Shown: in pieces, positions 3,715 through 33,578 of the stretch
How positions within the stretch are numbered: position 1 is the stretch's first letter
How the letters are laid out: each line of letters begins with the position of its first letter
NCBI GenBank assembly: GCA_038198935.1
Contig: JBBPZQ010000127.1
Span: forward strand, 824-64,823
Origin: Anaerolineae bacterium
Lineage (GTDB): Bacteria > Chloroflexota > Anaerolineae > JACRMK01
DNA length: 64,000 bases
Direction of reading: 5' to 3'
Program-made: the position numbers and the translations under genes
Notes under the pieces: generated by a model
The model's input: only the letters and a program-made list of their open reading frames with translations
Databases searched by the model: none
What the model was told of the DNA's origin: nothing

Positions 3715-3715
3715 T

Positions 3716-3744: not shown

Positions 3745-3750
3745 CGAACA

Positions 3751-5678: not shown

Positions 5679-5685
5679 GGTACAA

Positions 5686-12320: not shown

Positions 12321-13397
12321 ATGTCCACCTATGACATGACCACCCACACCCGCAACGGTCACATTGATTTGCGCAGCGACACTGTGACGCAGCCGACAGA
12401 GGCAATGCGCAAGGCGATGTATGAAGCCGAAATCGGCGACGATGTGTACGGCGAAGACCCGACCGTCAATCGCTTGCAGGAAATGTCGGCGCAGCGCTTG
12501 GGCAAAGAGGCAGGCTTGCTCGTCTTGAGCGGCACGATGGGCAATTTGGTTTCGCTGCTCACGCACTGCGGGCGCGGCGACGAAGCGATAATGGGCGACC
12601 GCGCGCACACGTTCACGAGTGAGCAGGGCGGCACATCAGGCATGGGCGGCATCCATCCACGCACAGTGCGCAACCAACTAGACGGTACACTTGACTTGCA
12701 AGCAGTTGAAGCGGCGATACGCACTGACAACGAACACTATCCGCGCACCAAACTCATCTGCATCGAGAACACGCAGAACAACATGGGTGGGCGCGTGCTG
12801 CCGCCGGACTATATGCGTGAACTCGGTACGCTCGCGCGTAAGCACAACCTGAAGGTGCATGTGGATGGCGCGCGCATCTTCAACGCTGCCGTCGCACTGG
12901 GCGTAGATGCGAGCGTGCTCGCGGAAGATGCCGACTCACTTACGTTTTGTTTGAGCAAAGGGCTGGCCGCTCCCGTTGGCTCGCTCATCGTCGGCGATAC
13001 GGATTTCATCAAAGAGGCGCGGCGTAATCGTAAGATCGTCGGCGGCGGCATGCGACAAGCGGGCGTGTTCGCGGCGGCCGGCATTGTCGCGCTGAATGAG
13101 ATGATCGAGCGACTCGACGACGATCATCGCAACGCGAAACGCTTGGCGGAAGGGCTTGCCAACATTGACGGTATGGGCGTTGATTCGAAGAGCGTCGAGA
13201 CCAACATCGTCTTCTTCGAGTTGACGAGCGAGCGCATCACGCCGCAGCAACTGGCATTGCGCTTGAAGGAGCGCGGCGTGCTGATCGGCGCAGGCGGTTC
13301 GCGGCGCATCCGCCTTGTCACGCATTTCGGCATCGAAGCGGTCCACGTCGAGCAGACATTGAGCGCGTTTCAAGACGTGATGCGTCAAACAATCTGA
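12321..13397 (+). CDS. ltaE: low-specificity L-threonine aldolase (PLP-dependent beta-eliminating lyase family)
   Basis: N-terminal DLRSDTVTQPT...GDDVYGEDPT motif; PLP-binding Lys region. Confidence 0.85.
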   Translation: MSTYDMTTHTRNGHIDLRSDTVTQPTEAMRKAMYEAEIGDDVYGEDPTVNRLQEMSAQRLGKEAGLLVLSGTMGNLVSLLTHCGRGDEAIMGDRAHTFTSEQGGTSGMGGIHPRTVRNQLDGTLDLQAVEAAIRTDNEHYPRTKLICIENTQNNMGGRVLPPDYMRELGTLARKHNLKVHVDGARIFNAAVALGVDASVLAEDADSLTFCLSKGLAAPVGSLIVGDTDFIKEARRNRKIVGGGMRQAGVFAAAGIVALNEMIERLDDDHRNAKRLAEGLANIDGMGVDSKSVETNIVFFELTSERITPQQLALRLKERGVLIGAGGSRRIRLVTHFGIEAVHVEQTLSAFQDVMRQTI

Positions 13398-16175: not shown

Positions 16176-16871
16176 ATGCGTGTGCCCAGCCTGCGTTTAT
16201 TGATTGTTGACGATCATCCGCTCGTGCGTCAAGGACTGCGCCGTGTACTAGAACGCGAGAAGGACATCGACGTAATCGGCGAAGTTGCCGACGGCCAACA
16301 GGCGATTGACGAAGCCAAACGGCTCACCCCGGATGCGATCTTGATGGACATCAACTTGCCGTCGGTCAACGGCTTGCAGGCGATGCGCGAGATCAAACAC
16401 CGCCAGCCCAGCATCGCCGTCGTGACGCTCACGGCATATAACAACCCCGCGCAGTTGTTCCACGCGATGCGCGCGGGCGCGTCGGTGTACTACCCCAAAG
16501 AGGTTTCCCCAACCGAGTTGCTGCGCGGTATCCGCACGGCGGTCGAAGGTAAATACATTGTGGATAGCCGCGTGCTGAACGAGAAGCAGCTGAACGATTG
16601 GCTCTTGCAACAATTTGCGACCATCGGCATCGGCAGCCACGATTACCCCGAAGAGATGTTCGTGCCGCTCTCCGCACGCGAGATGGAAATCCTGCAACAA
16701 ATTTCGCGCGGACTGAGCAACAAAGAGATCGCCAAGGAACTCGGTATCTCGCGCCAGACCGTGAAGAATCACATGACCTCGATACTGCGGAAGTTGTCGG
16801 TCAACGACCGCACGCAGGCGGCGCTGTACGCGCTGCGTCACGGCTGGATTCGTCTCGAGGACACGCAATAG
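16176..16871 (+). CDS. NarL/FixJ-family response regulator (REC plus LuxR-type HTH)
   Basis: DD...D...K receiver residues; C-terminal LuxR HTH. Confidence 0.85.
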   Translation: MRVPSLRLLIVDDHPLVRQGLRRVLEREKDIDVIGEVADGQQAIDEAKRLTPDAILMDINLPSVNGLQAMREIKHRQPSIAVVTLTAYNNPAQLFHAMRAGASVYYPKEVSPTELLRGIRTAVEGKYIVDSRVLNEKQLNDWLLQQFATIGIGSHDYPEEMFVPLSAREMEILQQISRGLSNKEIAKELGISRQTVKNHMTSILRKLSVNDRTQAALYALRHGWIRLEDTQ

Positions 16872-17939
16872 ATGAGCGCGGAAATCGCGGTGGTGCCGAC
16901 CGGCGTGGCCGGCATTCTGCTCGACTTGGAGCAGGAAGCGCAGCGCATCGAGAATGACCGCGGCGAGATCGATATGCTAGTGCGCCAGAGTCGCGGCGAA
17001 ACGGAAACGCTCAGCCGCCGCGAGCAGCAGATGACCAATCGGCTGCGGCAGGTCGAGACAAACCTCGACAACTATTCGCGCGACGAGATTCGTGAAATCT
17101 ATACGACTGTGCGCGACACGCAGATGCGCTTGTTCGTGATGCGCAGCCAAGCCGAGCAGCTCGAACACAAACGCCAGACGCTAGAGCAATATGCCGAGCA
17201 GCTCAGCCGACTACACGAATCGTTGCAGCGGATGGACAGCAGCGCACCTGCACCCGCGCCTGCAATCGCGCAACTCGCGACGCCGCAGCAGACCATCATC
17301 CGCATCATTGACGCGCAAGAAAAAGAGCGGCAAATGCTCGCGCGACAGATGCACGATGGGCCCGCCAGTTCACTTAGCAACCTGGTGTTGCAAGCCGAAG
17401 TCGTCGAGCGACTTTTCGAGGTCAATCCGTCGCAGGCGCGGGCAGAGCTTGGCGCGCTGAAGAATACCGTCAACCTGACGTTCCAACGCACGCGCGACTT
17501 CATCTTCAACTTGCGTCCGATGATGTTGGACGATCTCGGACTGTTCCCCACGCTGCGCCGCTACGTGCAAGAATTTCAAAGCAAGACGGGCATCACCTCG
17601 CAACTGACGATCATGGGCAAGGATCGCCGCTTGCCCGCACACAGCGAAGTTATATTATTTCGCGTGATTCAGGAATTACTCGGCAACGTCGAGCATCACG
17701 CGAACGCCAATCGCGTGCTCGTCAGCCTCGACGTAGGCGAGCAATTCGTCAGCGCGACGGTCGAAGACGACGGCAACGGCTTCGACGTACAGCAGACGTT
17801 GAGCGATGCCCGAGGGGGCAAGACGCTCGGCATCGGCAACATCCTCGAACGCGTCGAGTTGCTCGGCGGCGAAATCCGCTTCGAGAGCAGTATCGGGCGC
17901 GGCACGCGCGTCAGCCTGCGCTTGCCGGCTCTCGACTGA
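16872..17939 (+). CDS. cytoplasmic sensor histidine kinase (HisKA_3 plus HATPase_c), coiled-coil N-terminus
   Basis: H-box QMHDGPASSL; N/G boxes; no TM segments; start overlaps RR stop (translational coupling). Confidence 0.8.
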   Translation: MSAEIAVVPTGVAGILLDLEQEAQRIENDRGEIDMLVRQSRGETETLSRREQQMTNRLRQVETNLDNYSRDEIREIYTTVRDTQMRLFVMRSQAEQLEHKRQTLEQYAEQLSRLHESLQRMDSSAPAPAPAIAQLATPQQTIIRIIDAQEKERQMLARQMHDGPASSLSNLVLQAEVVERLFEVNPSQARAELGALKNTVNLTFQRTRDFIFNLRPMMLDDLGLFPTLRRYVQEFQSKTGITSQLTIMGKDRRLPAHSEVILFRVIQELLGNVEHHANANRVLVSLDVGEQFVSATVEDDGNGFDVQQTLSDARGGKTLGIGNILERVELLGGEIRFESSIGRGTRVSLRLPALD

Positions 17940-17966
17940 AATCAGCTGCTCGAATTGAGGTGCTTG

Positions 17967-18004
17967 ACGTAGAGACGTAGCGATGCTACGTCTCTACGTT
18001 TTTG
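17967..18004 (+). terminator. intrinsic terminator after kinase gene
   Basis: acgtagagacgtagc / gctacgtctctacgt hairpin followed by TTTT. Confidence 0.7.
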
Positions 18005-18033
18005 TACTGACCGTTAATAAGGTTGCGGTACTA

Positions 18034-18062
18034 TTGTTCGCGCTGCTATTACAACCTATAAT
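18034..18062 (+). promoter_or_regulatory. sigma70-like promoter of flp pilin gene (TTGTTC - 17 - TATAAT)
   Basis: Perfect -10, 17-nt spacer; about 68-nt 5'UTR with small hairpin and AAGGAGGTG RBS. Confidence 0.5.
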
Positions 18063-18130
18063 CCAATCACAAACACCACTGAACCATCTCGTTCAGATTC
18101 AAGTTCCAAAGCGAAAGGAGGTGAATCCCC

Positions 18131-18277
18131 ATGCTATTCAATCCACGCGAGGAAGGGCAAGGTTTGGTAGAGTACGCACTGATTCTGGTGCTGGTCGCCG
18201 TCGTGGTCATCGCCATTCTGACCCTGCTCGGGCCGGCCATCGGCAACGTCTTCAGCACGATCAAGAACAACTTCTAA
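18131..18277 (+). CDS. flp: Flp-family type IVb prepilin (48 aa), not in ORF track
   Basis: MLFNPREEGQG/LVEYALILVLVAVVVIAILTLLGPAIGNVFSTIKNNF: class III signal peptide with G/xxxxEY cleavage motif and hydrophobic stretch; strong RBS AAGGAGGTG 7 nt upstream. Confidence 0.85.
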   Translation: MLFNPREEGQGLVEYALILVLVAVVVIAILTLLGPAIGNVFSTIKNNF

Positions 18278-18308
18278 TCATCCCCCTGTCCTAGTTCGTC
18301 ATTTACGT

Positions 18309-18411: not shown

Positions 18412-18867
18412 ATGCATCAGTCATTATCAACCCGCCGCACCGTCGAGCGCGGTCAAAGCGTCGTCGAGTTTGCGATGTTCCTGCCGCTGCTCATCTTGTT
18501 ACTCGCCGGCGCGATTGATTTGGGCAACGCCTTCCAGACATGGATCAATTTGACCAATGCCGCACGCGAGGGCGCACGCTATCAATCCAAGTTCAACGAC
18601 TCGAGCGTCGCGTGCTCGCGGGTGCAGAATGAGTTGGCGAACAACAGCATCACGATCCCGTGCGGTCAAGTCAGCGTGAGTTATCCATCCGAGAGCGATA
18701 TTGATCCGAGGCTCGACTGCACGAGAGGCGCGTACACCACTGGCTGTCCGCTGCGCGTCTCGGTGCGCTACGGGCTGTCCACGCTCGTCGGCGATGTATT
18801 GAAATTCAATCCGATCACGATTACCGCATCGGTTGACATGGTGATCTATGGCGACGACACCCGCTAA
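18412..18867 (+). CDS. tadE: TadE/TadF-like minor pilin (pseudopilin)
   Basis: N-terminal xxVEFAMFLPLLILLL TadE motif. Confidence 0.75.
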   Translation: MHQSLSTRRTVERGQSVVEFAMFLPLLILLLAGAIDLGNAFQTWINLTNAAREGARYQSKFNDSSVACSRVQNELANNSITIPCGQVSVSYPSESDIDPRLDCTRGAYTTGCPLRVSVRYGLSTLVGDVLKFNPITITASVDMVIYGDDTR

Positions 18868-19249
18868 ACGCACACATACACACGCGCAGAGCATGGTCGA
18901 GTTCGCACTACTGCTGCCGGTGTTCGTGCTCGTCACCTTCGCTATCTTCGAGTTCGGGCACGCCTTCTACATCTACAATGCGATTGCCAATGCGGCGCGC
19001 GAGGGCACGCGCTACGGCGTCATCGCGCCGACCGACACGAACGGTATTAAAGATCGCGCCGTCAACAATGCAGTGGGCGTCAACATCACGCGCAGCGACG
19101 TGACGGCGACGACGATCACTTCAGGCTCGTGCGTGCTCGACACCCCGATCACTGTCACGGTGCGCTACACGTTCTCTGCCGTCGTCGCGATGGAGCCGAG
19201 CTTCGTGATGAATCGCAGCGCCAGTATGCGCATCGAGCAGTGTCCATAG
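18848..19249 (+). CDS. tadF: TadE/TadF-like minor pilin (second copy)
   Basis: N-terminal SMVEFALLLPVFVLV motif; overlaps upstream gene by 20 nt. Confidence 0.75.
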   Translation: MATTPAKRTHTHAQSMVEFALLLPVFVLVTFAIFEFGHAFYIYNAIANAAREGTRYGVIAPTDTNGIKDRAVNNAVGVNITRSDVTATTITSGSCVLDTPITVTVRYTFSAVVAMEPSFVMNRSASMRIEQCP

Positions 19250-19296
19250 CGGTTCACAATCAAACGAAGCATTGTCTGCTTGAGCACGACCACGCG

Positions 19297-19342
19297 CACG
19301 GTGTACAGCCCGATGGACGGCATACACCGTGATTTTGTTTTT
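19297..19342 (+). terminator. intrinsic terminator after tadE-like genes
   Basis: cacggtgta - loop - tacaccgtg followed by attttgttttt. Confidence 0.65.
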
Positions 19343-19473
19343 GGCGGCATTCCCGGCGTGAACAGAAAGCCGTTCCAATTCGCGTTCAGAGCGGGAGAGT
19401 CGTCCTTGCCATCACCGATAGACCTCATGGGTTTTACTAAACGGGCGAGGTCTGTTCCACCAACGGAGACCGT

Positions 19474-22400
19474 ATGAACAACCTCAATGAGCGCCGTCTG
19501 TTGTGCATCATCAGCATCCTGAGTTTTGCGTTCGTCCTCTGGCTGGCCAGCGTGAGCACGACCGGAGCCGTGCCGCGCGGCATTCAGGAATATACGCTCA
19601 CCACCACGAGCGATTTTGCGGCGGGCACGGCGCTCCGCACGGGACTCGTCAACAATAATGGCGGTGAGGTCGAGTTGGTGCCCGTCGGCGTGACCGGCAT
19701 CTGGGTGACGGACACGCAACAGCTGCCGCTGCCCCGCATGGAACTGGCCACCGCAACTGATGGCAATCGCATTTACGCGCTCGGCGGTGTGGACGACTCG
19801 TCACTGCCGCAGCGCACCATTTACTCGACGACAGTAGTCGGCGGCGCCTTGACCAAATGGGTCACGCAAACGAATGCTTTTCCGATTCGCCTATCGGGTC
19901 CCAATGCGCTCATCGCGACGGCCGGCGGCGCCACACGCCTGTACGTGCTCGGCGGATTCGACGGCTTCAACGTATCCAATAAGGTTTACTACGCTGCACT
20001 CAATAGCGATGGCTCAGTAGGTATCTGGATCACGAACTCGATCAACTTGCCGGTTGGCGTGTATTTCGCGTCGAGTGTCGTAAATCGCAATTACATTTAT
20101 GTCATCGGCGGCATTGACAACCTGAACGCCTATCGCAACATCGTCTATCGCGCGCCTTTCAACAATGACGGTTCGGTCGGCGCATGGACGGCGGTTGCAT
20201 CGCTGCCGCAGCCCATCGCGCTGTCGGCCGCCGTGGTGTATAACGGCTCCAATGCTGACACGATTTACGTGCTCGGCGGCGCGACCAGTTCGCTGACGAA
20301 CACGGCGAATGTTTACTTCAGCGACATCAATCCGGCTGACGGCACGCTGACCAGTTGGACATCGTCGGATGGTGTGCTGCCGCAGGCGTTCTCCAGCCAC
20401 GCAGCCGTCCAAGCCAACGGGCAAATCTATGTCATCGGCGGCAACTCCGGCGGTTTGGTGAGCAGCTTGCAGCCGCGCAAGCTCGTGCTGGCTGCGCTCG
20501 TGGACGAAAACAATCCGACGCGCCGCTTGTTTGACTTCGGCGGCGGCCAATCATCGTGGGTCGAGACAGAGCCGCTGCCGGTACCGCGTCGCTTGCACGG
20601 CGCGGCGCTGGTGAGCAGTCAGCTGTTTGCGATTGGCGGCGACAGCGCGACGGGCAACTCGAACAGTTCGCCGAGCACTCTCACGTATCACGGACCCATC
20701 GGCGGCGTTGGCGCACGATATGCACCGTCGGGCATTTACGTCTCGCCCATCATCAACGTCGGCGGCAGTTTCCAAATGCTCGATCTGGAGTGGTCAACAG
20801 TCATCACCAACCAGAGCGCGCTCAGTGTGACTCTACGCTATCACACCAGCACGAACGGCATGGATTGGTTCCCGTATAGCGGCTTACTGCCGTCGTCGAG
20901 TGCGACCTCAGCCAATTTGCTCGACGCGAAACCGATCACTTATCCATTGAACACCATCGGTCAATACTTCCAGTATCAGGTGTTCTTCACGACGACGCTC
21001 AGTTCGGTCACGCCGTTTTTCACCGAAAGCCATCTGCGCGTGCTGCCGCCGCCGCCCGACTTGGCTGTGAGCAAAGCCGCGCAAGCCAAGCAGGTGCTGC
21101 CCGGCAACCTGATTACTTACACGATTGCGTACAGCAACGTGAACGGCAGCACCGCCGTCGGCGTGATCTTGACGGAGTCAGTGCCGTCCAACACGACGTT
21201 CGTCGGCGCAGATCCGGGTTGGCTGCCAGCAGGCAATGGCTTGTACACGAAGCTCGTCGGCACACTGGGTCCCAATAACAACGCGATCACCCATTTCGTC
21301 GTGCGCGTCAACAACCCGCCGCTGGCATCGTCGGTGGCGAATATGGTGAGTATTGGGGGCGATCCGAGCGAGACGAATTTCAGCAACAACAGCGCAGGCG
21401 TGAACACCATCGTGCAGTCGCTCGTCAACGGCGTTGACCTGCGCGTGAGCTTAGACGATCAGTTGACGTATCCCATCGCGGGGCAGGTCATCAGCTACGC
21501 TGTCACGTACATCAACTTTGGCGACACCGCCGCGAATGGCGCGCGCCTGACCGAGACGCTGCCTGCGAATATGACTTACGTCGGCGGGCCCGAATGGTCC
21601 AATGTCGGCGGCAATCAATACGCACACGACATCGGCACGGTCGCCAGCGCAGACTCCGGCGGACTGAATTTTGTCACGCTGCTGGACGCCAATGTCGGCG
21701 GCAACACGCAACTGACGAATACGGTGACGATTGGCTTGGCTGGCACGGACGTGAACACCGCCAACAATACTGCAACGGATGTTGATCTGGTACTGCCACC
21801 CAATTTAAGCGTAACGCAAGATGACGGCACCGCCGTCTTGACGCCGATGCAAATCGTAACGTACACCATCCTTTATCAAAACGTCGGCGGTGCGGCGGCG
21901 ACGAGCGTGATGCTGACTGAGACATTGCCACTCGCCGTCAGCGTATTCAATGCGTCGGGCTGGACGCCAGCCGGCGGTCAGTACGTGCGCAATCTAGGCA
22001 CGCTGGCACCGGGCGCCAGCGGCAGCGCGACCTTCGCGGTGCAGGTGAACAATAATGTGAGCAATGGCACACTCATCACCAACAACGTGACCATCCTCGG
22101 CGGCGGCGAAAATCTGTCAACGCTTGGCGACAACAGCGCGCGCGACGTGGACACCGTGTTCGTCGGCGGCGCACCTGACCTTCAAATCAGCGGCGCGAGC
22201 GGCGCGTTGGCTGTGGCTGGCCAGCCCGCCAGTGTCGTCGTGACCGTCACCAACGCCGGCAGCGCGGCGACGCCGACGTGGTTCTTTGTTGATCTGTACG
22301 TGGATCCGAGCGCGCCGCCGACGAACCGCTCGCAGTTGGGCAACAATTTCACTACGAATGGCGACCTGCTGGCACCGGGCGAGTGGCGTCGCTTGAGCAT

Positions 22401-22596
22401 TCCGTGGACATTTGCATCGGCCGGTTCGCACACGCTCTATCTACAAGCGGACACGTGCGATGGGAGCACGGATTGCCTTGATCCATCCTACGGGCGCGTC
22501 GCCGAATCAAACGAGGCAAACAACATTTTTGGGCCCCTCCTCGTCAACGTCACGGCGACGGGCGCGACGATCTATCTGCCGCTGATCCGACGATAG
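19474..22596 (+). CDS. large secreted/cell-surface protein: N-terminal signal/anchor, six Kelch-type beta-propeller blades, then multiple DUF11 (conserved repeat domain) units
   Basis: Repeated IYxLGG/YVIGG Kelch signatures at residues about 90-400; at least 4 DUF11-like repeats (e.g. TYTIAYSNVNGSTAVGVILTESVPSNTTFVG); Asn/Thr-rich. Confidence 0.7.
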   Translation: MNNLNERRLLCIISILSFAFVLWLASVSTTGAVPRGIQEYTLTTTSDFAAGTALRTGLVNNNGGEVELVPVGVTGIWVTDTQQLPLPRMELATATDGNRIYALGGVDDSSLPQRTIYSTTVVGGALTKWVTQTNAFPIRLSGPNALIATAGGATRLYVLGGFDGFNVSNKVYYAALNSDGSVGIWITNSINLPVGVYFASSVVNRNYIYVIGGIDNLNAYRNIVYRAPFNNDGSVGAWTAVASLPQPIALSAAVVYNGSNADTIYVLGGATSSLTNTANVYFSDINPADGTLTSWTSSDGVLPQAFSSHAAVQANGQIYVIGGNSGGLVSSLQPRKLVLAALVDENNPTRRLFDFGGGQSSWVETEPLPVPRRLHGAALVSSQLFAIGGDSATGNSNSSPSTLTYHGPIGGVGARYAPSGIYVSPIINVGGSFQMLDLEWSTVITNQSALSVTLRYHTSTNGMDWFPYSGLLPSSSATSANLLDAKPITYPLNTIGQYFQYQVFFTTTLSSVTPFFTESHLRVLPPPPDLAVSKAAQAKQVLPGNLITYTIAYSNVNGSTAVGVILTESVPSNTTFVGADPGWLPAGNGLYTKLVGTLGPNNNAITHFVVRVNNPPLASSVANMVSIGGDPSETNFSNNSAGVNTIVQSLVNGVDLRVSLDDQLTYPIAGQVISYAVTYINFGDTAANGARLTETLPANMTYVGGPEWSNVGGNQYAHDIGTVASADSGGLNFVTLLDANVGGNTQLTNTVTIGLAGTDVNTANNTATDVDLVLPPNLSVTQDDGTAVLTPMQIVTYTILYQNVGGAAATSVMLTETLPLAVSVFNASGWTPAGGQYVRNLGTLAPGASGSATFAVQVNNNVSNGTLITNNVTILGGGENLSTLGDNSARDVDTVFVGGAPDLQISGASGALAVAGQPASVVVTVTNAGSAATPTWFFVDLYVDPSAPPTNRSQLGNNFTTNGDLLAPGEWRRLSIPWTFASAGSHTLYLQADTCDGSTDCLDPSYGRVAESNEANNIFGPLLVNVTATGATIYLPLIRR

Positions 22597-22742
22597 CATA
22601 GGAATAAAGTAGTGAGAACAATGGGTTGTTGCAATGGCATGCTGTGCGTCGTAGAATACTCGCGCCTTGCTGAGGTTTAAGCGCTCTATCCGTTGACGTG
22701 CGGACGGCTGCAGCGAGAGTTCATCAGATACGGAGGCGCATC

Positions 22743-23549
22743 ATGCGTCGTGTCGGTCGCATTCTGATCGTTTTGGGTGTCGCGCTGGGGTTGATCACCT
22801 TCCTTGCAGCAATGATCATTCTGCCACAACTGTCGAGCAGCGGCGGGCCCGTCGTCAAGACGACCAAAGTCGTCGTGGCGCAGCAGAACATCGCCTCGCG
22901 CGCGCCCGTTCCACGCGCCGCGCTGACGGTTGTCGAATGGCCCGACGACGAAGTGCCGGCCGGTGCCTTCACCGATCCGGACCTGGCCTCCAAGGACAAA
23001 TTGTCCAAGACAAACATTGCCATCGGACAAGTCGTCTTGTCGAGCATGGTGATCGAAAAGAAGAACGAGGAGAAGCGCAAAGGCATCGGCTCCGATGCGT
23101 CGTACATCGTGCCGGCCGGCAAAGTCGCCGTCGCGTTCCCGCTCAGCATGTTGTCGGGCGTGGCGTCGGCGCTGAAAGATGGCGACACGGTGGACTTGCT
23201 CGTGAGCTACGAATTGGTGCCGGCGCCGGGACAGGCACAGACTGGCGTAACGCGCCGACAGATCACGCAGTTGACGATGCAAGACGTGGAGATTTTGCGC
23301 GTGGGTCCATGGAACCAGCCGGCGGCCGCCGACGGCGCGCCGTCGAAAGATGCGAACGTCTTGACGTTATTGGTCAATCCGCAGGACGCGCTCGTGCTGA
23401 AGTTCCTGCGCGAGACCAGCGCCGACGTGCAGTTCGCCCTGCGCGCGGCCGGCGATCATCAAGTGTACAAGACCGACGCCGTCATTATCGAGTACGTTGA
23501 CCAGCGTTTCAATTTCACGGGCTCACTCGTGGGTCGCCCATCACGCTAA
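22743..23549 (+). CDS. cpaB: Flp pilus assembly protein CpaB/RcpC (SAF-domain)
   Basis: Single N-terminal TM then SAF/RcpC region; track ORF 22698..23549, start refined to MRRVGRIL. Confidence 0.65.
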   Translation: MRRVGRILIVLGVALGLITFLAAMIILPQLSSSGGPVVKTTKVVVAQQNIASRAPVPRAALTVVEWPDDEVPAGAFTDPDLASKDKLSKTNIAIGQVVLSSMVIEKKNEEKRKGIGSDASYIVPAGKVAVAFPLSMLSGVASALKDGDTVDLLVSYELVPAPGQAQTGVTRRQITQLTMQDVEILRVGPWNQPAAADGAPSKDANVLTLLVNPQDALVLKFLRETSADVQFALRAAGDHQVYKTDAVIIEYVDQRFNFTGSLVGRPSR

Positions 23550-23564
23550 TTTTCAGGATGACGT

Positions 23565-24983
23565 ATGAGCATGTTGGCAGATAAAATTCGCATCGTCGTC
23601 GTGGACGACAACACGGACACGCTCAACAACTTGAAGAAGTTGTTGTACTTTGAAAAAGATATTGAGATCGTCGCGACGGCCGCTTCGGGCGAGGATGGCG
23701 TGCAGGCGTCGGTGCTGCATCAACCCGACGTGGTGTTGATGGACATCAACATGCCCGGCATGGACGGCATCTCTGCCAGCGAGATCATCAACACGCGCGT
23801 GCCAAGCGCACAGATCATCATCATGTCGGTGCAAGCCGAAGCCGACTACTTGCGGCGCGCGATGATGGCTGGCGCGCGCGATTTTTTGATCAAACCGTTC
23901 AGCAGCGAGCAATTGGCTTCGACGGTGCGCAAGGTGTATGCGCTCGGCGCGGGGCAGCGCAGCGGCGCGCTTGTCACTGCCCTCGCCGCGCCAGCGCAGC
24001 GTGAGCCTGTCGAACGAGCCGCGCCGATGGTTGGCATGCCGCAGTCCGTGGCAGCGCAGCCGAGCGTGCTGACGCAGTATGCACAGACGAGCACGCTCAC
24101 GCCGCCAAAGCCGCAGTACGCGTCGAGCGCGCCGACGTTCGTGGTCGCGCCGGCGGCGCCCACCAATCCGATTCCAGTGGACGGCGTCAAGCAAGGCACA
24201 GTGTTCGCGGTCGTCAGCGCCAACGGTGGCGTCGGACGCAGCACTATCGCCGCGAATCTAGCGATTGCGTTGAAGGGCGAGACGAACGGCAAAGTCGGAT
24301 TGGTGGATTGCAGTCTGCGCTTCGGCGACATTGGTGTGCTGCTCAATCTGACTTCGACACACACGATCTCGGATATCGCGGCAGCCGAAGGCGGTGTGGA
24401 CACGGAGATTCTGGTGGATGTAATGTCCACGCATCCGTCGGGCATCAAGGTGCTGCTTGCGCCCGCATCGCCGGAGTTGGCCGATCTGGTGGGTCCGCAG
24501 GCGATGCGCACGATCTTGAACACGCTGCGCGAGCATTTCGATTTTCTCATTCTGGACACCTTCACCTCGTTCGACGAAGTGATGCTGACCATCCTCGACG
24601 TGGCGGACCAAATCGTGCTGCTCACGACGAGCGAGCTTCCATCCATCAAGAACACGAAACTGTTTTTTGAAGTGATTGATGCGCTGAAGTATCCGACCGA
24701 AAAAACGCTGCTGGTGCTGAACAAGTACGACCCGAAGAGCACGATCAAGCCCGACGACATTCAGGCAAGCATCAAACATGCGGTGTACTCCATGATCGAG
24801 CGTGACGACCGCGCGACGACGCAGGCCGCGCAGACGGGCCAGCCTTTCGTCGTCAATCAGCGAAACTCGTCGGCGACCGTCGGCGTGCAGCGTCTGGCAA
24901 AACTGCTGACGCGCCCGCCCGAACCCGTGGCCGTACCCGCGTCCGCGGACGCGAAACCGCAACGCAGAGGATTGTTTCGCTGA
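23565..24983 (+). CDS. cpaE: CpaE/TadZ pilus localisation ATPase with intact N-terminal receiver domain
   Basis: REC domain with DD, phospho-acceptor D (LMDINMPGMDG), S and K conserved; ParA/MinD-like domain with VVSANGGVGRSTIAANLA deviant Walker A. Confidence 0.8.
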   Translation: MSMLADKIRIVVVDDNTDTLNNLKKLLYFEKDIEIVATAASGEDGVQASVLHQPDVVLMDINMPGMDGISASEIINTRVPSAQIIIMSVQAEADYLRRAMMAGARDFLIKPFSSEQLASTVRKVYALGAGQRSGALVTALAAPAQREPVERAAPMVGMPQSVAAQPSVLTQYAQTSTLTPPKPQYASSAPTFVVAPAAPTNPIPVDGVKQGTVFAVVSANGGVGRSTIAANLAIALKGETNGKVGLVDCSLRFGDIGVLLNLTSTHTISDIAAAEGGVDTEILVDVMSTHPSGIKVLLAPASPELADLVGPQAMRTILNTLREHFDFLILDTFTSFDEVMLTILDVADQIVLLTTSELPSIKNTKLFFEVIDALKYPTEKTLLVLNKYDPKSTIKPDDIQASIKHAVYSMIERDDRATTQAAQTGQPFVVNQRNSSATVGVQRLAKLLTRPPEPVAVPASADAKPQRRGLFR

Positions 24984-25075: not shown

Positions 25076-26524
25076 ATGTCCTTGCTAAAACGCATCGAGC
25101 GCAGTTACCAACAGCAGTCGGAGCTGACCGCGCCGCCCACCAACGGCGGCAGCAGCGGCGCGCTGCCGCCCACATCGCCAGCGCCGCCCGACAGCAACGG
25201 CTCGAAGTTGGAAGAGCTACGCCTGCGCCGTGTGCAATCCGCGCCGGTGCGCGACGCTCAACGCGAACTGCGCGAGCGCATCCACGCGCGCCTGATCGCC
25301 GAACTCGACCACAAACTCGACGTCTCCAAGACCGACGAGGTGCGCAAGAATTTAGACGTTTTATTCAACACCGCACTCGACGACGAAAACGTACCGATGA
25401 ATCGGGCGGACAAAGCGAAACTGTTCGAGCAAATTGTTGCGGACATCCTCGGCTTTGGTCCCATCGAGCCGCTGCTCGCGGACGACTCCATCTCGGAGAT
25501 CATGGTCAACGGACCTAAAGCGGTGTACATCGAGCGCAACGGCAAGGTCGAGAAGACCGCCGTCACCTTCGAGAACGATGGGCACGTTGGACGCATCATT
25601 GACCGCATCGTCTCGCCGCTCGGCCGGCGCGTGGACGAATCGCAGCCGTATGTGGATGCGCGCTTGCCCAACGGCTCGCGCGTGAACGTCATCATCCCGC
25701 CGCTGTCCTTGAAGGGGCCAACCATTACCATCCGCAAGTTCTTCAAGCGCATGTTAACGGCGGAGCGGCTGATAGACTTAGGTTCGATCACGCCCGAAGC
25801 GATTGAGCTGCTGAAAGCCTGCACCTACGCGCGCCTCAACATGGTGATCTCGGGCGGCACCGGCACGGGCAAGACGACGTTTCTCAATATGCTCAGCGGG
25901 TTCATTCCCTCCGACGAGCGCATCATCACGATTGAGAACGCGGCGGAGTTGCAGCTGCAGCAGGAGCACGTCATCACGCTGGAGTCGCGTCCGCCCAACA
26001 TCGAAGGCAAAGGCGAGGTGACCATTCGCGATCTAGTTATCAACGCCTTGCGCATGAGACCCGAGCGCATCATCGTGGGCGAGTGTCGCGGCGGCGAGGC
26101 GCTGGACATGCTGCAAGCGATGAACACGGGGCACGATGGCTCGCTGACGACCATTCACGCCAACACGCCGCGTGATGCGCTGGCGCGCATTGAGACGATG
26201 GTGCTGATGGCGGGGCTGGACTTGCCCGTGCGCGCGATTCGCGAGCAGGTGGCGAGTGCGCTCGACGTGGTGGTGCAGTTGGAGCGGCTGCGCGATGGCA
26301 CGCGGCGGGTGGTGCAGATCGCGGAAGTGCAGGGCATGGAAGGCGACGTGATCGTGATGCAGGACATCTTCAAGTTCGAGCAGTTGGGCATCGAGAACGG
26401 CAAAATCAGCGGGCGCTTACAGCCGACGGGCATTCGTCCGAAATTCAGCGAGAAGTTGGACGCGGCCGGCATTCAACTGCCGCCCGAAGTCTTCGGCTTC
26501 GGCGCCGATAAACGACGGCGCTGA
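25076..26524 (+). CDS. cpaF: CpaF/TadA type II/IV secretion ATPase
   Basis: Walker [10 protein letters not shown], Asp box, Walker B, His box. Confidence 0.9.
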
Positions 26525-26630: not shown

Positions 26631-27596
26631 ATGAACCCAGCCGCATTGGGGCTCGCATTGAGCTGCATGTTTTCGGTCATCATCTTTTTCTTTGGATTGG
26701 CGCGCTTCGTGGGCGGGGGCAACCAGCAAGTTTCCAATCGGCTCGAACGCTTCGCCACACGACCAGGTGCGACGCTGCCAGCCGCGTCGAGTAAAGACCA
26801 AAAGCGCGGACGCATCGCCGCAGAGATTGACAAAGAGCTGAGTCGGCGCGGGCGCAGCAATAACATCGCCGCCGAACTCGCGCGCGCCGATCTCAAGCTG
26901 ACGCCGGGCGAATTCTTTCTCATTCAAGTGCTGGTCATCATCGTGTTAGGCATCACGGGATACCTCGTCTTTCGTCAGCTGGTGATGGCGCTGCCGATGG
27001 GCATCGTCGGCTATTTCCTGCCGCGCTTTTACGTGCGCTTCCGTCAAGGACTGCGGCAGCGCACGTTCTACACACAACTGCCCGACGCCATCAGCTTGCT
27101 CGCCAACTCACTGCGCTCTGGCTACAGCCTGCCGCAATCTATGGAGTTGCTCTCGCGCGAGATGCAGCCGCCCATCGCCACTGAGTTCGGGCGTGTCGTG
27201 CGCGAGATCGGGTTGGGCTTGCCGTTCGAGCAAGCTATGGAGAATATGGTGCGCCGCAACAAGAACGACGATCTCGATCTGACCGTGACCGCCATCCTCG
27301 TGAATCATGAAGTCGGCGGCAACTTATCGCAGGTGCTGGAGATCATTGGCCACACCATCCGCGAGCGCATCCGCATCAAAGGCGAGATTCGGATCATGAC
27401 CGCGCAGCAGCAGTTGTCCGGCTACATCGTCGGCTTGATGCCATTCGGGTTGACGTTTTTCCTCTTCGTCATCAACCCCGACTACATGGGCGAGTTGTTT
27501 CATAGCCTGTGCGGGCAGATGCTCGCGTGCACGGCCTTCTCGTTCGTCGGCATTGCGTTCGTGCTCATCCGCAAGATCGTGAACATCGAGGTCTAA
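26631..27596 (+). CDS. tadB: TadB platform protein (T2SS-F family)
   Basis: T2SSF domain, three TM segments. Confidence 0.8.
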   Translation: MNPAALGLALSCMFSVIIFFFGLARFVGGGNQQVSNRLERFATRPGATLPAASSKDQKRGRIAAEIDKELSRRGRSNNIAAELARADLKLTPGEFFLIQVLVIIVLGITGYLVFRQLVMALPMGIVGYFLPRFYVRFRQGLRQRTFYTQLPDAISLLANSLRSGYSLPQSMELLSREMQPPIATEFGRVVREIGLGLPFEQAMENMVRRNKNDDLDLTVTAILVNHEVGGNLSQVLEIIGHTIRERIRIKGEIRIMTAQQQLSGYIVGLMPFGLTFFLFVINPDYMGELFHSLCGQMLACTAFSFVGIAFVLIRKIVNIEV

Positions 27597-27597
27597 C

Positions 27598-28524
27598 ATG
27601 GCTGTCTTTATCGCGCTGGGTTTGGGCGTCGCCGTCGTGATGGTTTTCGTCGGCTTGGCGATGCCGCGCGGCGTTGATCCCGTGCAAGCGCGACTCAATC
27701 AATATGGCTCGCGCGTCCGCACGCTGGAAGAAATGGAACTGGAGCGTCCCTTCAACGAGCGCACCGTTAGGCCGCTCTTGCAAAACATGGCCCGTTTGGT
27801 GCTGCGCTTTACGCCGCAGACGAACTTGAAAGAAGCGCAGCGCAAGCTCGACATGGCAGGCAATCCGAACAACTGGACGGCGTCGGATTTTCTCGGCGTG
27901 CGTGGGCTGTCGGCGCTGGCGTGTGGCAGCATTCCATTGCTCCTGCTGTGGTTCAGCCACGCGCCGCTGCAAAACATGATTTTGCTCACTGCGGCGGGTG
28001 CGCTGCTCGGCTTCTTCTTGCCGGTCATCTGGATCGCGCAAAAAATTAAAGCGCGGCAGAAAGCGATTCAAAAAGGACTCCCCGACGCGCTCGACCTGCT
28101 GACGATTAGCGTCGAAGCCGGACTCGCACTCGATGCGGGCTTCGCCAAAGTGGCAGAGAAAGCCGACAGCGAAATCGCGCGTGCGTTCGGGCGCGTCATC
28201 AGCGAAGTGCGCGTCGGTCGTCCGCGCAAAGATGCATTGCGCGACATGGCAGATCGCGCGGGCGTGCCCGACCTCACCAACTTTGTGACCGCGCTGATTC
28301 AAGCCGAGCAACTCGGCGTGAGCATGACGAAGATTCTGCGCATCCAGTCGGAGCAGATGCGCATCAAGCGCCGCCAGCGTGCAGAAGAGCAAGCGCAAAA
28401 AGCGCCGGTCAAAATGAGTGTGGTACTGGTGCTCATGCTTCTGCCTGGCTTGTTCATCGTCATCCTCGGTCCGTCGGTGCCCCGCATCTGTCGGCAGTTC
28501 GATATATCTGACATCTGCAAATGA
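27598..28524 (+). CDS. tadC: TadC platform protein (T2SS-F family)
   Basis: T2SSF domain; start 1 nt after tadB stop. Confidence 0.8.
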   Translation: MAVFIALGLGVAVVMVFVGLAMPRGVDPVQARLNQYGSRVRTLEEMELERPFNERTVRPLLQNMARLVLRFTPQTNLKEAQRKLDMAGNPNNWTASDFLGVRGLSALACGSIPLLLLWFSHAPLQNMILLTAAGALLGFFLPVIWIAQKIKARQKAIQKGLPDALDLLTISVEAGLALDAGFAKVAEKADSEIARAFGRVISEVRVGRPRKDALRDMADRAGVPDLTNFVTALIQAEQLGVSMTKILRIQSEQMRIKRRQRAEEQAQKAPVKMSVVLVLMLLPGLFIVILGPSVPRICRQFDISDICK

Positions 28525-28859
28525 GAATTGCCAACCTCACGCGCGCCACGCTCATCGCCGCCGACGCGCGTGAGGCGCGCACCTTCGTGCAGCGGCTGTT
28601 CGGCTTGATGGGCCGACGGCGGCTGTCCGACAATGCTGCGCTCGTTCTGCCCGACAATTGGGTGCATACCTTCTGGATGTACTTCCCCCTCGATCTCGTG
28701 TATATTGATCGCGCGCGGCATGTGGTAGGATTGCAAGAAGCCGTGCCGCCCAATCGCCTCGGCAAACCGTATTGGTCTGCGCACGCCGTGGTCGAATTGA
28801 ATGCGGGCGTGATTCACAACAGTCAAACACAAGTTGGCGATCAATTACAATTTGAGTAG
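28521..28859 (+). CDS. DUF192 family protein
   Basis: ATG overlaps tadC stop (ATGA); conserved LDLVYIDRARHVVG core typical of COG1430/DUF192. Confidence 0.65.
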   Translation: MRIANLTRATLIAADAREARTFVQRLFGLMGRRRLSDNAALVLPDNWVHTFWMYFPLDLVYIDRARHVVGLQEAVPPNRLGKPYWSAHAVVELNAGVIHNSQTQVGDQLQFE

Positions 28860-28882: not shown

Positions 28883-29581
28883 ATGTCAGCGCCACGCTGG
28901 TTTCAGTACGCTCGGCTGGCACTCCTCGATTTGATTTTTCCGCCGCGCTGCGCGGGCTGTGGTCGCGCGGGCGAATGGTTCTGTGCCAAATGCGTCGCGT
29001 CGCTGCATCGCGTGCGTGAGCCGATCTGCGGGCGCTGCGGCCAAGAGTTGTCTTCGCGCTCGTGCTTAGCATGTCGCCGCCATGCGCTCCCGGCCTATCT
29101 GCACGGCTTGCGCGCCGTCGCGCATCACGATGGGCAACTGCGCAAAGCCATTCATAGACTGAAGTACGAGCGACTGAGCGCCATTGCCGAACCCTTGGGC
29201 CAATTGCTGTGCGATTACCTCGACGCAAATCCGCTGCCTTTCACGCTGATTGTGCCGGTGCCGCTGCACGACGAGCGTCAGCGCGAGCGCGGCTACAATC
29301 AATCTGCGCTGCTGGCTGATGTTGTCAGCCGACGCACTCAGCAACCCGCGCAACAAAACATCCTCGTGCGCACGCGCCACACCATTCCGCAAGTCGGCTT
29401 GAACGAACACGAGCGGCGTCAAAACCTGATTGATGCATTCGCATGCGTGCAGCGCGTGGATGACGCACAAGTGTTGTTGATTGATGATGTGTGCACGACG
29501 GGTTCGACGATGAGCGAGTGCGCGGCGGCGCTGCACGCGGCGGGCGCGCGTTCCGTCTGGGGATTGACTTTGGCGCGCTAA
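28883..29581 (+). CDS. comFC: ComF/ComFC-family phosphoribosyltransferase-like protein
   Basis: N-terminal CxxC...CxxC zinc ribbon; C-terminal PRTase motif LIDDVCTTGST. Confidence 0.75.
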   Translation: MSAPRWFQYARLALLDLIFPPRCAGCGRAGEWFCAKCVASLHRVREPICGRCGQELSSRSCLACRRHALPAYLHGLRAVAHHDGQLRKAIHRLKYERLSAIAEPLGQLLCDYLDANPLPFTLIVPVPLHDERQRERGYNQSALLADVVSRRTQQPAQQNILVRTRHTIPQVGLNEHERRQNLIDAFACVQRVDDAQVLLIDDVCTTGSTMSECAAALHAAGARSVWGLTLAR

Positions 29582-29666
29582 GGTTCAATAATTGACATTG
29601 AACGTTGGACGTTGGAGGCATTCCAATTCAACATCTAACGTCCAGCATCCAAATCAGGAGGATCGT

Positions 29667-30248
29667 ATGCAACTTTCGATCACGGGCCGCAATGTCGAGA
29701 TCACGGAACACACACGAGACTACGTAGATAAGCGGCTGCAGCGCGTCGTGCGCCATTTACCCGCTCTCACCGAAGCGCGCTTCGAACTCACAGTGGAAAG
29801 CACCAAAGGTGCAGAACAGCGCAACGTGGCGCAAGTCACGCTGCGCGCGGGCGGCGTCATTCTGCGCAGCGAGGAGCGCGCGTCCGATTTGTTCACCGCG
29901 ATTGACGCTGTGATGGATCGCGCAGTGCGCCAAGCAGACCGCTTCAAAGGCAAACGACAGCAGAAGCGCAAACGTGCAAACGGACTACACGAGAATGTCG
30001 AGGCGTTCAACCAAGAAGCGGTGCTGACGGCCGAGCCGACGACAGAAGAAGCAGTTGAATCGTATCAACCCATCGTGCGCATCAAACGATTCCAGAGCGC
30101 GCCGATGGAGCCCGAAGAAGCCATCGAGCAAATGGAATTGCTGGGCCACAACTTTTTCGTGTTCTTCAGTAGTGAGGATGGCCAAGTCAACATCCTCTAT
30201 CGCCGCAACGACGGCACTTACGGAGTACTGATCCCCCAAATTGCATAA
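29667..30248 (+). CDS. hpf: ribosome hibernation promoting factor, long form
   Basis: MQLSITGRNVEITE N-terminus; C-terminal dimerisation domain; track ORF 29592..30248 refined. Confidence 0.85.
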   Translation: MQLSITGRNVEITEHTRDYVDKRLQRVVRHLPALTEARFELTVESTKGAEQRNVAQVTLRAGGVILRSEERASDLFTAIDAVMDRAVRQADRFKGKRQQKRKRANGLHENVEAFNQEAVLTAEPTTEEAVESYQPIVRIKRFQSAPMEPEEAIEQMELLGHNFFVFFSSEDGQVNILYRRNDGTYGVLIPQIA

Positions 30249-30316: not shown

Positions 30317-31090
30317 TCACCGTGAAGTGGCCGCTGATGGCGGGATGTGACGCAATTCTCGATACACCTCGAATGTGTACCACGCCATCAGCAGACTCAG
30401 CAGCCAGCCGCGCCAGCCGTCGCGCCAGCCTTGCAGCGTAATAAGACGGCGGCGAAACTCGCGCAGCGGCTGCAACATGAAGTTGTGCGGTCGTGCACGC
30501 GCGCCTTCAGCGAAAAGTTTCTGTGCATCGTAGCGCGCATATTGTTTTTGCTTGCGCACGAACTCGCCGACACTCTCGTAGTTGAGATGAACGAGATGAC
30601 CACGTAGTGTGCCTGCCTCACCATCGAGCACGACAAGTTCGTGCACGGGTCGTGTCGCGTCGTAGTGCGCGCGCGCACGCTGCATCAAGCGCAATTGCCG
30701 ATCGGGATACCAGCCTGTGTGCTTGATCCACGCGCCGAAGATCACGTTCTGACGCGGAATCCAGAAGCCGACGATAGATGGAGAGCGGGATGCGAGAGCC
30801 AGCCCTGCTTCAATTTCGTGGCGCAATTCATCGCTGACTCGCTCGTCCGCGTCCACGAACAGCACCCACTCACCGCACGCCAGCGCGAGTGCAACGTCGC
30901 GCTGCGCAGCATAGTTCACGAAAGCATGCTGCTCGACGCGCGCGCCGAACGCGTGCGCAATTGCGACCGTGCGGTCGCTGCTGAATGAATCCAGCACCAG
31001 CACTTCGTCTGCCCAACGCACGCTGGCGAGACAATCAGGTAAATGTTTTTCTTCGTTGTGCGTGAGGATGACGGCGGAGAGCGAGGGCAT
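30317..31090 (-). CDS. family 2 glycosyltransferase
   Basis: ILTHNEE...VLDSFSSDRT GT-A N-terminus, DxD region. Confidence 0.8.
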   Translation of the reverse strand: MPSLSAVILTHNEEKHLPDCLASVRWADEVLVLDSFSSDRTVAIAHAFGARVEQHAFVNYAAQRDVALALACGEWVLFVDADERVSDELRHEIEAGLALASRSPSIVGFWIPRQNVIFGAWIKHTGWYPDRQLRLMQRARAHYDATRPVHELVVLDGEAGTLRGHLVHLNYESVGEFVRKQKQYARYDAQKLFAEGARARPHNFMLQPLREFRRRLITLQGWRDGWRGWLLSLLMAWYTFEVYRELRHIPPSAATSR

Positions 31091-31140
31091 AGTATCTGGA
31101 AGAGACCTCGCGGGTATTGGAATCCCGCGACGTCCTTTAG

Positions 31141-32145
31141 CTACAGCAGCGCACGTACTTTCGTGAAAGCGTCCAGTAGGCGGGTGCGCTCGTCAGGCGC
31201 CAACGACTCGCGTGAAAGTTTGCGCGCCTCGCTCCACAAACCGAGCCGAATGATCGCGCGAACGAGCGCGACATACTGGGGCGAATGAAACTTATGAAAG
31301 TAGCGCACGCGACTGCGCCACTTGGCAACGAACATCGCGTGGCGGAACTGGCGCGTGGCTTGCCCTTCGTGATGTACGATGCGCGCGCGCGGCTCGCACC
31401 AGATTTGCCAGCTAGCCCGTTTGATGCGCCGACACCAGTCCACTTCTTCGACGTACATGAAGTACGCCTCGTCCATCAAGCCGACCTGCTCAATCACGTC
31501 GCGCCTCGCGAGCATGCACGCGCCGAGTGGATGATCAATCTCGAACGGTGTGTTGCGTTGTGGGTAGCGTCCGTTCAGGCGCGAATTGATCAAGCGCCCA
31601 TGCAGCGGAAAAAAATCGAAAATGGTTTGCGCCAGGCCAGGGAAGCGAAACGCCGAATGCTGAAAGCGTCCATCCGCAAACGTCAATTGCGCGCCAACGA
31701 CGCCCGCGCGCGGGTGTGCTCGTATAAAGCGTAACAGCGTTACAACCGCATCGGGCTGCACTTCCGTGTCGGGATTGAGGAGCAGAATGTATTCGGGTAA
31801 TCCACCCTCACCCCGGCCCTCTCCCTGCAAGGGAGTGGGCCGGGGTGAGGGCTGCCCCCTAAACCCCAACTCCCGCAAAGCCACGTTGTTCGCTGCCGCG
31901 AATCCTCGATTACTGTCGAGCGCGATCACGCGCACACACGGAAACTCGTCACGCACCATCGCGGCACTGCCGTCGCTCGACGCATTGTCCACGACGATAG
32001 GTTGCGGCGCGACGCCCTCGCTTGCCAACAGCGCGCTTAGGCATCGGCGCAGCAACTCGCGCGTGTTATAGCTGACGATGATGACGGGAAGATGTTCTTG
32101 ACCGCCGCTTGCCGACTGCCGTCTGCCGTCCATCTCAGAACCCAA
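31141..32145 (-). CDS. family 2 glycosyltransferase carrying an in-frame palindromic element
   Basis: VIIVSYNTRELL...VVDNASSDGS; insertion encodes RGQPSPRPTPLQGEGRGEGGLPE. Confidence 0.8.
   Translation of the reverse strand: MGSEMDGRRQSASGGQEHLPVIIVSYNTRELLRRCLSALLASEGVAPQPIVVDNASSDGSAAMVRDEFPCVRVIALDSNRGFAAANNVALRELGFRGQPSPRPTPLQGEGRGEGGLPEYILLLNPDTEVQPDAVVTLLRFIRAHPRAGVVGAQLTFADGRFQHSAFRFPGLAQTIFDFFPLHGRLINSRLNGRYPQRNTPFEIDHPLGACMLARRDVIEQVGLMDEAYFMYVEEVDWCRRIKRASWQIWCEPRARIVHHEGQATRQFRHAMFVAKWRSRVRYFHKFHSPQYVALVRAIIRLGLWSEARKLSRESLAPDERTRLLDAFTKVRALL
31802..31870. repeat. GC-rich palindromic element, in frame within GT2 gene (family copy B)
   Basis: ccaccctcaccccggccc-tctccctgcaagggag-tgggccggggtgaggg, near-perfect palindrome. 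Confidence 0.7.
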
Positions 32146-33343: not shown

Positions 33344-33398
33344 CGAGATAATTTCAAAACAATCACACAAGGCAACCACCAAGACCCTAAGGCGCAAG

Positions 33399-33432
33399 GA
33401 CACAAAGAAGCATAGTTCTGAAACTTTGTGTC
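33399..33432 (-). terminator. hairpin downstream of GT-C gene
   Basis: gacacaaag - 16 nt - ctttgtgtc. Confidence 0.4.
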
Positions 33433-33578
33433 TCCGTGTCTTGGTGTCTTTGCGGATAAATCGTTCAGCCACTTTTAACACACGCTATGATGTCTTGATT
33501 GTGTGGACACAAAAATTTCTGGAGCATTCGCCCCAGAATCGCCGCGAGTCTAACAGAGGGGGTGCGCGTCGTCAAATG

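Follow-up and report, generated by a model that had tools for sequence, protein, structure and literature searches.

A gene for a large non-pilin protein with a Kelch beta-propeller holds a conserved place beside the minor-pilin genes of a Tad pilus locus in an Anaerolineae bacterium. We analyzed a 64,000-nucleotide stretch of this organism's DNA (assembly GCA_038198935.1, contig JBBPZQ010000127.1, positions 824 to 64,823 of the forward strand). This 64-kb stretch is called the window, and coordinates refer to its plus strand unless another locus or strand is named. The Kelch gene (19474-22596) codes for a 1040-aa protein and lies between flp-tadE-tadE and cpaB-tadZ-cpaF-tadB-tadC, with a 101-bp gap to cpaB. 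A preliminary description, made from the letters alone, had placed this open reading frame (ORF) between the pseudopilin genes and cpaB within the Tad operon, and Pfam, NCBIfam, and the coordinates bear it out. The new element is the conserved association of a Kelch protein with the Tad minor-pilin module, together with a conserved peptide at the protein's C terminus; the parts themselves (Kelch, CLIPPER, and CARDB domains) are ordinary. Tentatively, we favor the reading that the Kelch protein is a Sec-exported non-pilin adhesin within the Tad minor-pilin (tip or priming) module, and that it is a counterpart in gene logic of PilC, PilY1, and MshQ.

Tad pili are thought to bear only pilin-like tip proteins (TadE, TadF, and TadG/CpaL). 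We searched the literature on Chloroflexota Tad pili, on Kelch or other propeller proteins with Tad, and on PilY1-like proteins and found no such component described. The Litorilinea tad cluster is described as tadA, B, C, E, Z and flp only. The preliminary description had likewise taken it to be absent from earlier accounts.

The Kelch gene occupies a constant slot in related Tad loci

Co-conservation with tad genes had been set beforehand as a test, and it holds. All 14 family genes, in 13 loci, sit directly after minor-pilin genes and before cpaB. The loci counted are the window, L001/L002, L003 (two copies), L004, L005, L063, L064/65, L067-L071, and L072. Most pairs of family genes share only 26-52% identity; three genes are close relatives of one another. 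L067-L071 came from a metagenome scan with the family-specific middle domain (a 5-sequence alignment), and L072 was reached independently via CpaF. L075 and L076 are uninformative on the slot, as their contigs end just upstream of cpaB. These are independent assemblies of an abundant relative that both break near this point, and at a guess repeats in a stalk gene could cause the breaks.

The family is small. Full-length relatives number about seven in a collection of 5.8 billion proteins, and every one with a readable contig occupies the same slot. A genome scan with the single Kelch protein as query returned no relative. Scanning species genomes with a different 5-sequence alignment, which drew on generic Kelch patterns, retrieved mostly unrelated Kelch proteins from many phyla, and tad genes were present in L005 alone. 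L005, a Chloroflexi metagenome-assembled genome, is also the only full-length relative in the species genome set. Because generic Kelch proteins have no tad neighbors, the Tad link belongs to this family in particular rather than to Kelch proteins at large.

The relation of the Kelch gene to tadG differs from what had been expected. The preliminary description held that the gene sits where other loci carry tadG, a view corrected by the finding that most relatives have a TadG-like gene directly upstream of the Kelch gene (10 of 14 cases: the second module of L003, L004, L005, L063, L067-L071, and L072). These upstream proteins carry Tad_N (PF13400), and most add vWA and CarboxypepD_reg domains, with VWA matches in L003 and L067. 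Since the two genes co-occur side by side in so many loci, the Kelch protein is a separate component and not a variant of TadG. The absence of TadG is confined to the window's own subfamily (type A: the window, L001, and the first L003 copy), whose members are 46-49% identical and have no TadG upstream. The type B branch comprises the second L003 copy, L072, L064, and L067-71 and has TadG-vWA upstream, the upstream gene in L064 being cut by the contig end. We searched the 64-kb window by tblastn with five TadG proteins of relatives and found no TadG/vWA gene, nor any remnant in the 224-bp spacer (19250-19473) that corresponds to the tadG slot of relatives. This spacer contains a 65-aa ORF with a TTG start (19280-19477) that matches no family; L001, whose gap measures 21 bp, has no equivalent ORF.

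The tandem arrangement in L003 (8976-20713) shows how the gene travels. A TadE-TadE-Kelch module (1038 aa for the Kelch protein) is followed by a TadE-TadE-TadG-Kelch module (722 aa for the vWA-containing TadG and 1296 aa for the Kelch protein). The two Kelch genes belong to different subfamilies and are 45% identical. These tandem modules indicate that duplication of the Kelch gene involves minor-pilin sets rather than the machine genes. Two Chloroflexota Tad loci sampled via CpaF lack the family, which marks the Kelch gene as an accessory. In L074, three Flp genes precede cpaB, and both the minor pilins and the Kelch gene are missing. In L073, an Anaerolineae locus, the minor-pilin block contains a BNR_4 propeller with a signal peptide as well as minor pilins with other decorations.

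The L073 block (1-1891 and 4694-7424) also encodes a TadE-type pilin of >734 aa that carries fused CarboxypepD_reg, SdrD_B, malectin, and CARDB domains, a TadE of 345 aa, a TadG-like protein of 545 aa, and a HicAB pair. Such a block is another way of decorating the tip. In type B and related loci, a Thr/Pro/Ala-rich small protein with an LPXTG-type signal (LPATG, LPTTG, LPSTG, LPSAG, or MPATG, with a membrane segment and a basic tail after it) is encoded between the Kelch gene and cpaB. L067-71 all have such neighbors, and examples lie at 12399-13118 (-) in L005, 3000-3656 (-) in L064, 9189-9728 (-) in L067, 9281-9994 (-) in L068, 9309-10175 (-) in L070, 9275-9931 (-) in L071, and 84-533 (+) in L075. 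A tblastn search of the 64-kb window found no such small protein.

The protein combines a signal, a propeller, and an immunoglobulin-like stalk

The Kelch gene starts with ATG, and a Shine-Dalgarno sequence (GGAG, 19465-19468) lies 5 nt ahead of it. Five Pfam families scored above their curated cutoffs: DUF11 (99.3 bits against 24.6, in three stretches), Kelch_1 (56.9 against 20.1), Kelch_KLHDC2 (64 against 50), Beta-prop_ATRN-LZTR1 (60.2 against 50), and CARDB (PF07705, 32.1 against 22.7, aa 900-1019). The sole addition from NCBIfam was the DUF11 repeat model TIGR01451 (49.9 against 24). We built an AlphaFold2 (AF2) model from eight family sequences. Its mean predicted local distance difference test score (pLDDT) was 76, with about 90 in the propeller and below 50 in the tail. 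The model orders the chain as a helix (4-27), a propeller (~79-410), a beta-sandwich (416-525), DUF11 Ig domains (527-895), CARDB (897-1028), and a disordered tail (1029-1040). The signal or anchor and the six-blade Kelch propeller named in the preliminary description thus stand, on Pfam, AF2, and six GG motifs. Its count of at least four DUF11 repeats does not, and is replaced by three DUF11 domains, a CARDB domain, and a jelly-roll. Its suggestion of an adhesin gains ground, as signal, propeller head, and Ig stalk make up an adhesin architecture.

The N terminus (aa 1-32, 19474..19569) has a basic n-region, about 19 hydrophobic residues, and then TGA/VP, and is predicted to be a Sec-type signal or anchor. 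The N termini of homologs show AxA-type sites (ANA/Y, ASA/F, VSA/S, and ARA/D). The Kelch protein has no prepilin G/xxxxE motif and no Tad_N match in Pfam at its N terminus. It also lacks the features of a TadE or TadF protein, with no PF07811 match and no Glu at +5 of the hydrophobic segment.

A family segment (aa 47-73, DFxxGxxxRTGLxN..GEvxLxPxG) precedes the six-blade propeller (aa 79-410, 19708..20703). The six hairpin-defined blades of the model agree with GG motifs at residues 104, 160, 212, 268, 322, and 388. The top propeller match in the PDB by Foldseek was the six-bladed Kelch domain of LZTR1, with a template modeling (TM) score of 0.8. When the whole chain was used, integrin alpha ectodomains came first (E ~1e-19), with a TM of only ~0.2, and a mastigoneme protein was also similar. 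Going by the model, this likeness is one of build, with a propeller head on Ig legs, and implies no common descent. The integrin alpha comparison can be extended in one respect, as the adjacent vWA gene (TadG) of relatives recalls the propeller and vWA head of integrins. The sequences, however, are only ~10% identical, and integrins have seven FG-GAP blades.

The jelly-roll (aa 416-525, 20719..21048) is specific to the family and bears the signature YAPSGxY. Folded alone by AF2 (aa 404-531), it reached a pLDDT of 84.5, and its weak Foldseek matches included the Fbs1 sugar-binding domain, F5/8-C (discoidin), CBM6/CBM32, and the carbohydrate-binding domain of galactose oxidase (E 3e-3 to 2e-2, TM 0.4-0.56). 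The modeled likeness to carbohydrate modules no more than hints at glycan binding. The stalk consists of three DUF11/CLIPPER Ig domains (aa 527-650, 653-775, and 776-895; 21052..22158) and had no match in the PDB by sequence. An isopeptide triad is plausible by sequence in repeat 1 alone (K534, E568, and N638/639). The Lys position is occupied by L and Q in repeats 2 and 3, and relatives keep K in repeat 3. The chain ends with the CARDB domain (aa 897-1028, 22162..22557), followed by a flexible linker and the terminal peptide ...ATIYLPLIRR (22558..22593), as seen from pLDDT below 50 and the family alignment.

We aligned 17 family members and found a constant frame. It runs from a Sec-type signal through a DFxxGxFxxTGLxN..GEvQLxPxG segment, the propeller, the middle domain, the stalk, CARDB, and a linker to the terminal peptide. 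The middle domain carries YAPxGxY and CARDB carries DTCD..C.DPSYG..ESNE.NN.FGP, which reads DTCD..C.DPSYG..ESNEANN.FGP in the window. The stalk ranges from 0 to ~5 DUF11/Ig domains across homologs, and the linker is of variable length and low complexity.

A conserved peptide ends the Kelch protein and its relatives

All members of the family keep the terminal peptide, and it is the most conserved short element of the C terminus. Drawn from 21 tails, the consensus is φ[YF]LPL[IV]x[RK], with 0-6 residues after it. The family shows no variation at L1035 and P1036, and the tail in the window ends IYLPLIRR. We ran HMMER exhaustively with the final 148 residues as query and retrieved 332 proteins with a CARDB-like domain (E<=1e-3), and the peptide terminates 32 of the best 148 of these 332 matches. 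We scanned ten of the longer peptide-bearing proteins, of which six had Kelch repeats (two with DUF11 too) and four had DUF11 with no Kelch detected. The propeller in the L073 minor-pilin block (2125-3423), an unrelated BNR_4 protein, ends GVFLPLVLRNR.

We found no other ORF of at least 100 aa with the same ending in 1.32 Mb of DNA around these Tad loci, and no NCBIfam model matches the peptide. We considered a sortase (LPXTG) or exosortase signal and rejected it, because the protein stops 4 residues after LP and has no membrane segment there. Judged by its sequence, the peptide may mark Chloroflexota surface proteins as a C-terminal tag not described before.

Gene content of the surrounding locus

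The genes around the Kelch gene are those of a Tad machine. A NarL/LuxR-type response regulator (16176-16871) and a DegS/HisKA_3 histidine kinase (16872-17939), both assigned by Pfam, come first, and such a pair also precedes flp in L001, L003, L004, L072, and L074. A terminator-like hairpin found by consensus scan (17966-18000, 16 pairs and a T run) separates the kinase gene from flp (18131-18277). The Flp major pilin (48 aa, MLFNPREEGQG/LVEYALIL...) was recognized from the ORF listing and its relatives. It is 69-96% identical to Flp of L001, L003, L004, L005, and L067-L071, and relatives are annotated PF04964. At 48 aa, flp was too short for the 60-aa minimum of the initial ORF listing. A 103-aa ORF that overlaps flp in another frame (17983-18294) has no family match and is probably spurious. 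Two TadE-like minor pilins follow, the first of 151 aa (18412-18867, PF07811, 58.6 bits) and the second, in the TadF position, of 133 aa (18848-19249, PF07811, 59.5 bits).

On the other side of the Kelch gene, Pfam and NCBIfam identify CpaB/RcpC (22698-23549), TadZ/CpaE with a receiver domain (23565-24983), CpaF/TadA (25076-26524), TadB (26631-27596), TadC (27598-28524), DUF192 (28521-28859), a ComF-like phosphoribosyltransferase (28883-29581), and HPF (29592-30248). The closest named relatives of CpaF are from 'Chloroflexi bacterium' (75% identical) and 'Anaerolineae bacterium' (67-69%). In Pfam and NCBIfam scans, the stretch from the response regulator to HPF contains no gene for a secretin (rcpA/cpaC), TadD, or a prepilin peptidase, a content that fits a monoderm-type envelope.

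ComF and HPF recur 3' of tadC in nearly all related loci, and DUF192 recurs in most. The presence of ComF raises the possibility that this Tad pilus takes part in DNA uptake. Farther downstream, the minus strand (30317-36605) encodes two GT2 glycosyltransferases, a 448-aa protein with a weak CHU_C match, and a 1008-aa PMT_2-type glycosyltransferase. This glycosyltransferase set is syntenic 3' of the Tad locus in L072 and partly so in L001, L075, and L076.

Comparison with known tip proteins and fibrillar adhesins

We compared the Kelch protein to non-pilin proteins of type IV pili. PilC is made with a cleavable signal peptide, and PilC/PilY1 dock on a PilK-type minor pilin by donating their last ~10 residues in trans as a beta-strand (PMC13533445). 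AlphaFold predicts the same docking for MshQ, which is large and whose gene comes immediately after the minor-pilin genes (PMC13533445). Once buried, the strand licenses fiber assembly, and the proposal is that it keeps the adhesin on the tip under load (PMC13533445). Like these proteins, the Kelch protein is a large non-pilin with a predicted N-terminal Sec-type signal and a beta-propeller. It is likewise encoded directly 3' of minor pilins, as in the MshQ and pilVWXY1 operons, and duplicated with minor-pilin sets. It also stops, as they do, after a conserved peptide of ~8-10 residues (PMC13533445). Unlike PilC/PilY1, it has no Pfam PilC/PilY1 match, its propeller is six-bladed and N-terminal, and it belongs to a Tad (type IVc) system.

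Within Tad systems, TadG/CpaL provides the strand in cis (PMC13533445), and a separate proposal views Tad tips as TadE/F/G complexes whose exposed domains can be exchanged (PMC12075869). The Kelch protein resembles TadG/CpaL in its locus region, its large size, and its exposed domains, and TadG/CpaL has been implicated in adhesion and surface sensing; however, the Kelch protein has neither a PF13400 nor a VWA match in Pfam. The Kil Tip modules of Myxococcus offer another parallel, as an organism can have more than one tip-type module (as in L003) and variable exposed domains are encoded with minor pilins (PMC12075869). In Kil the variable domain is part of the pilin KilN, whereas here it is a separate non-pilin protein.

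The order of domains also matches CLIPPER fibrillar adhesins, which have a signal peptide, an N-terminal binding domain, a tandem DUF11 stalk, and a C-terminal end domain (10.1101/2025.04.25.650565). The Kelch protein differs from these adhesins in being tied to a pilus locus, in its short stalk (three domains, and none in some members), and in having no known anchor (LPXTG, membrane segment, or T9SS domain).

Models for the function of the Kelch protein

The arrangement that we favor can be outlined as follows. The signal peptide would be cleaved off as the protein is exported by Sec. The N-terminal propeller and the jelly-roll would form a distal binding head, for which we suspect a glycan ligand, and the DUF11/CLIPPER domains would act as a stiff stalk. 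CARDB, the flexible linker, and the terminal peptide would attach the protein, presumably at the pilus tip. The docking partner is the most conjectural part of this scheme. By analogy with PilC/PilY1 and MshQ, the peptide could dock onto a TadE/TadE(/TadG) complex by beta-strand addition. In the window's subfamily, which has no TadG, the strand provided elsewhere in cis by TadG/CpaL may come from the Kelch protein.

Besides the precedents above, several observations speak for a tip adhesin of this kind. The slot is constant in the 14 genes despite the low identity of most pairs. In L003 the gene has been duplicated along with minor-pilin sets. The whole chain recalls integrin alpha ectodomains in build, though at low TM. 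The L074 core locus misses the minor pilins and the Kelch gene together. The L073 block has the same tail on an unrelated head. Finally, the tail is conserved after a variable low-complexity linker and is disordered in the monomer model.

A bolder version extends this idea across the group. Tad pili of Anaerolineae-like Chloroflexota would carry Sec-exported non-pilin tip adhesins that plug in trans, via φ[YF]LPL[IV]x[RK], into TadE/TadF(/TadG) by beta-strand addition. One plug would then serve exchangeable heads (Kelch-CLIPPER, the BNR propeller, and perhaps LRR-fn3 and invasin-like heads encoded elsewhere), and in TadG-less modules the Kelch protein would take the assembly-licensing role of TadG/CpaL. 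We regard this general scheme as unlikely in its entirety.

Several points weigh against placing the protein in the filament. The propeller is N-terminal in the Kelch protein and C-terminal in PilY1. A strand in trans is not obviously needed, because most loci have a TadG with its own conserved C terminus. A promoter-like site lies at 22629-22657, between the Kelch gene and cpaB. The tail itself also occurs where no tad genes were called nearby. On the 12-kb contig L066, two LRR-fn3 proteins and one TIG-Kelch protein with the same tail are encoded in a row (781-2283, 2589-3920, and 4198-6528), and there are no tad genes among the called genes. The same tail ends P0039, a Big_1/invasin/DUF11 protein encoded next to minCDE, again with no tad genes among the called genes. 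On proteins outside Tad loci, the simplest reading of the tail may be a general envelope tag. These cases suit the main alternative, which we consider possible rather than probable, in which the Kelch protein is a fibrillar cell-surface adhesin whose tail is a general tag in the multilayered Chloroflexota envelope. Such an adhesin would be co-expressed with the pilus, for example to lock the cell on a surface after retraction, and would not be part of the filament. Its head-stalk-anchor order would be that of fibrillar adhesins with a DUF11/CLIPPER stalk (10.1101/2025.04.25.650565), the range in stalk length is as expected for reach beyond the envelope, and another DUF11 protein builds its own appendage in a Chloroflexota (10.1101/2025.08.19.671072). 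This model does not readily explain the strict adjacency to minor pilins over deep divergence or the co-duplication, as co-regulation alone rarely fixes gene order so tightly. The lack of another tail-bearing ORF around these Tad loci also counts against it, and a tail with no membrane segment is read by no known anchoring machinery.

The remaining explanations appear improbable to different degrees. The Kelch protein could be a trans-envelope part of the machine that leads the pilus across the wall and the outer layers in a cell lacking a secretin. The locus has no rcpA/cpaC, and the gene adjoins cpaB, whose product is reported to form a periplasmic conduit in diderms (PMC12307814). We judge this role to be quite unlikely because L073 and L074 share the same machine genes and have no Kelch gene. 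The domain content is also variable, the gene duplicates with minor pilins, and the AF2 model shows nothing ring-forming or membrane-embedded beyond the signal. Equally hard to credit is a secreted enzyme, for example an oxidase or mutarotase, in which a catalytic Kelch propeller joined to a CBM-like jelly-roll would remodel glycans of the envelope or the pilins. The galactose oxidase domain among the jelly-roll matches and the glycosyltransferase genes conserved downstream on the opposite strand are in keeping with such an enzyme, as are weak matches to NanM/YjhT mutarotases; these score ~25 bits, however, against NCBIfam cutoffs of 243-416, and a long Ig stalk would be unusual. Only one His (H309) and no Cys of the propeller is invariant among family members, so the copper site of galactose oxidase is not conserved. 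We give least credence of all to a passenger surface-protein gene inserted in the operon by chance. The flanking spacers (224 bp and 101 bp) and the promoter-like site would suit a passenger, but the idea is contradicted by finding the whole family in one slot in lineages down to 26-30% identity.

We conclude that, in many Anaerolineae-like Chloroflexota, the Kelch protein is a strong candidate for an adhesive accessory of the Tad pilus that has not been described before. A non-pilin propeller tied to a minor-pilin block would, if the tip adhesin reading is true, be the first PilY1-like partner proposed for the most divergent class of these pili, and it comes from a little-studied phylum with an unusual cell envelope. 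The Kelch-Tad system bears on whether trans beta-strand addition, recently shown in type IVa pili, extends to Tad. Under either the pilus or the envelope reading, the terminal peptide, if it is a tag, would be useful for predicting the surface proteome of Chloroflexota.

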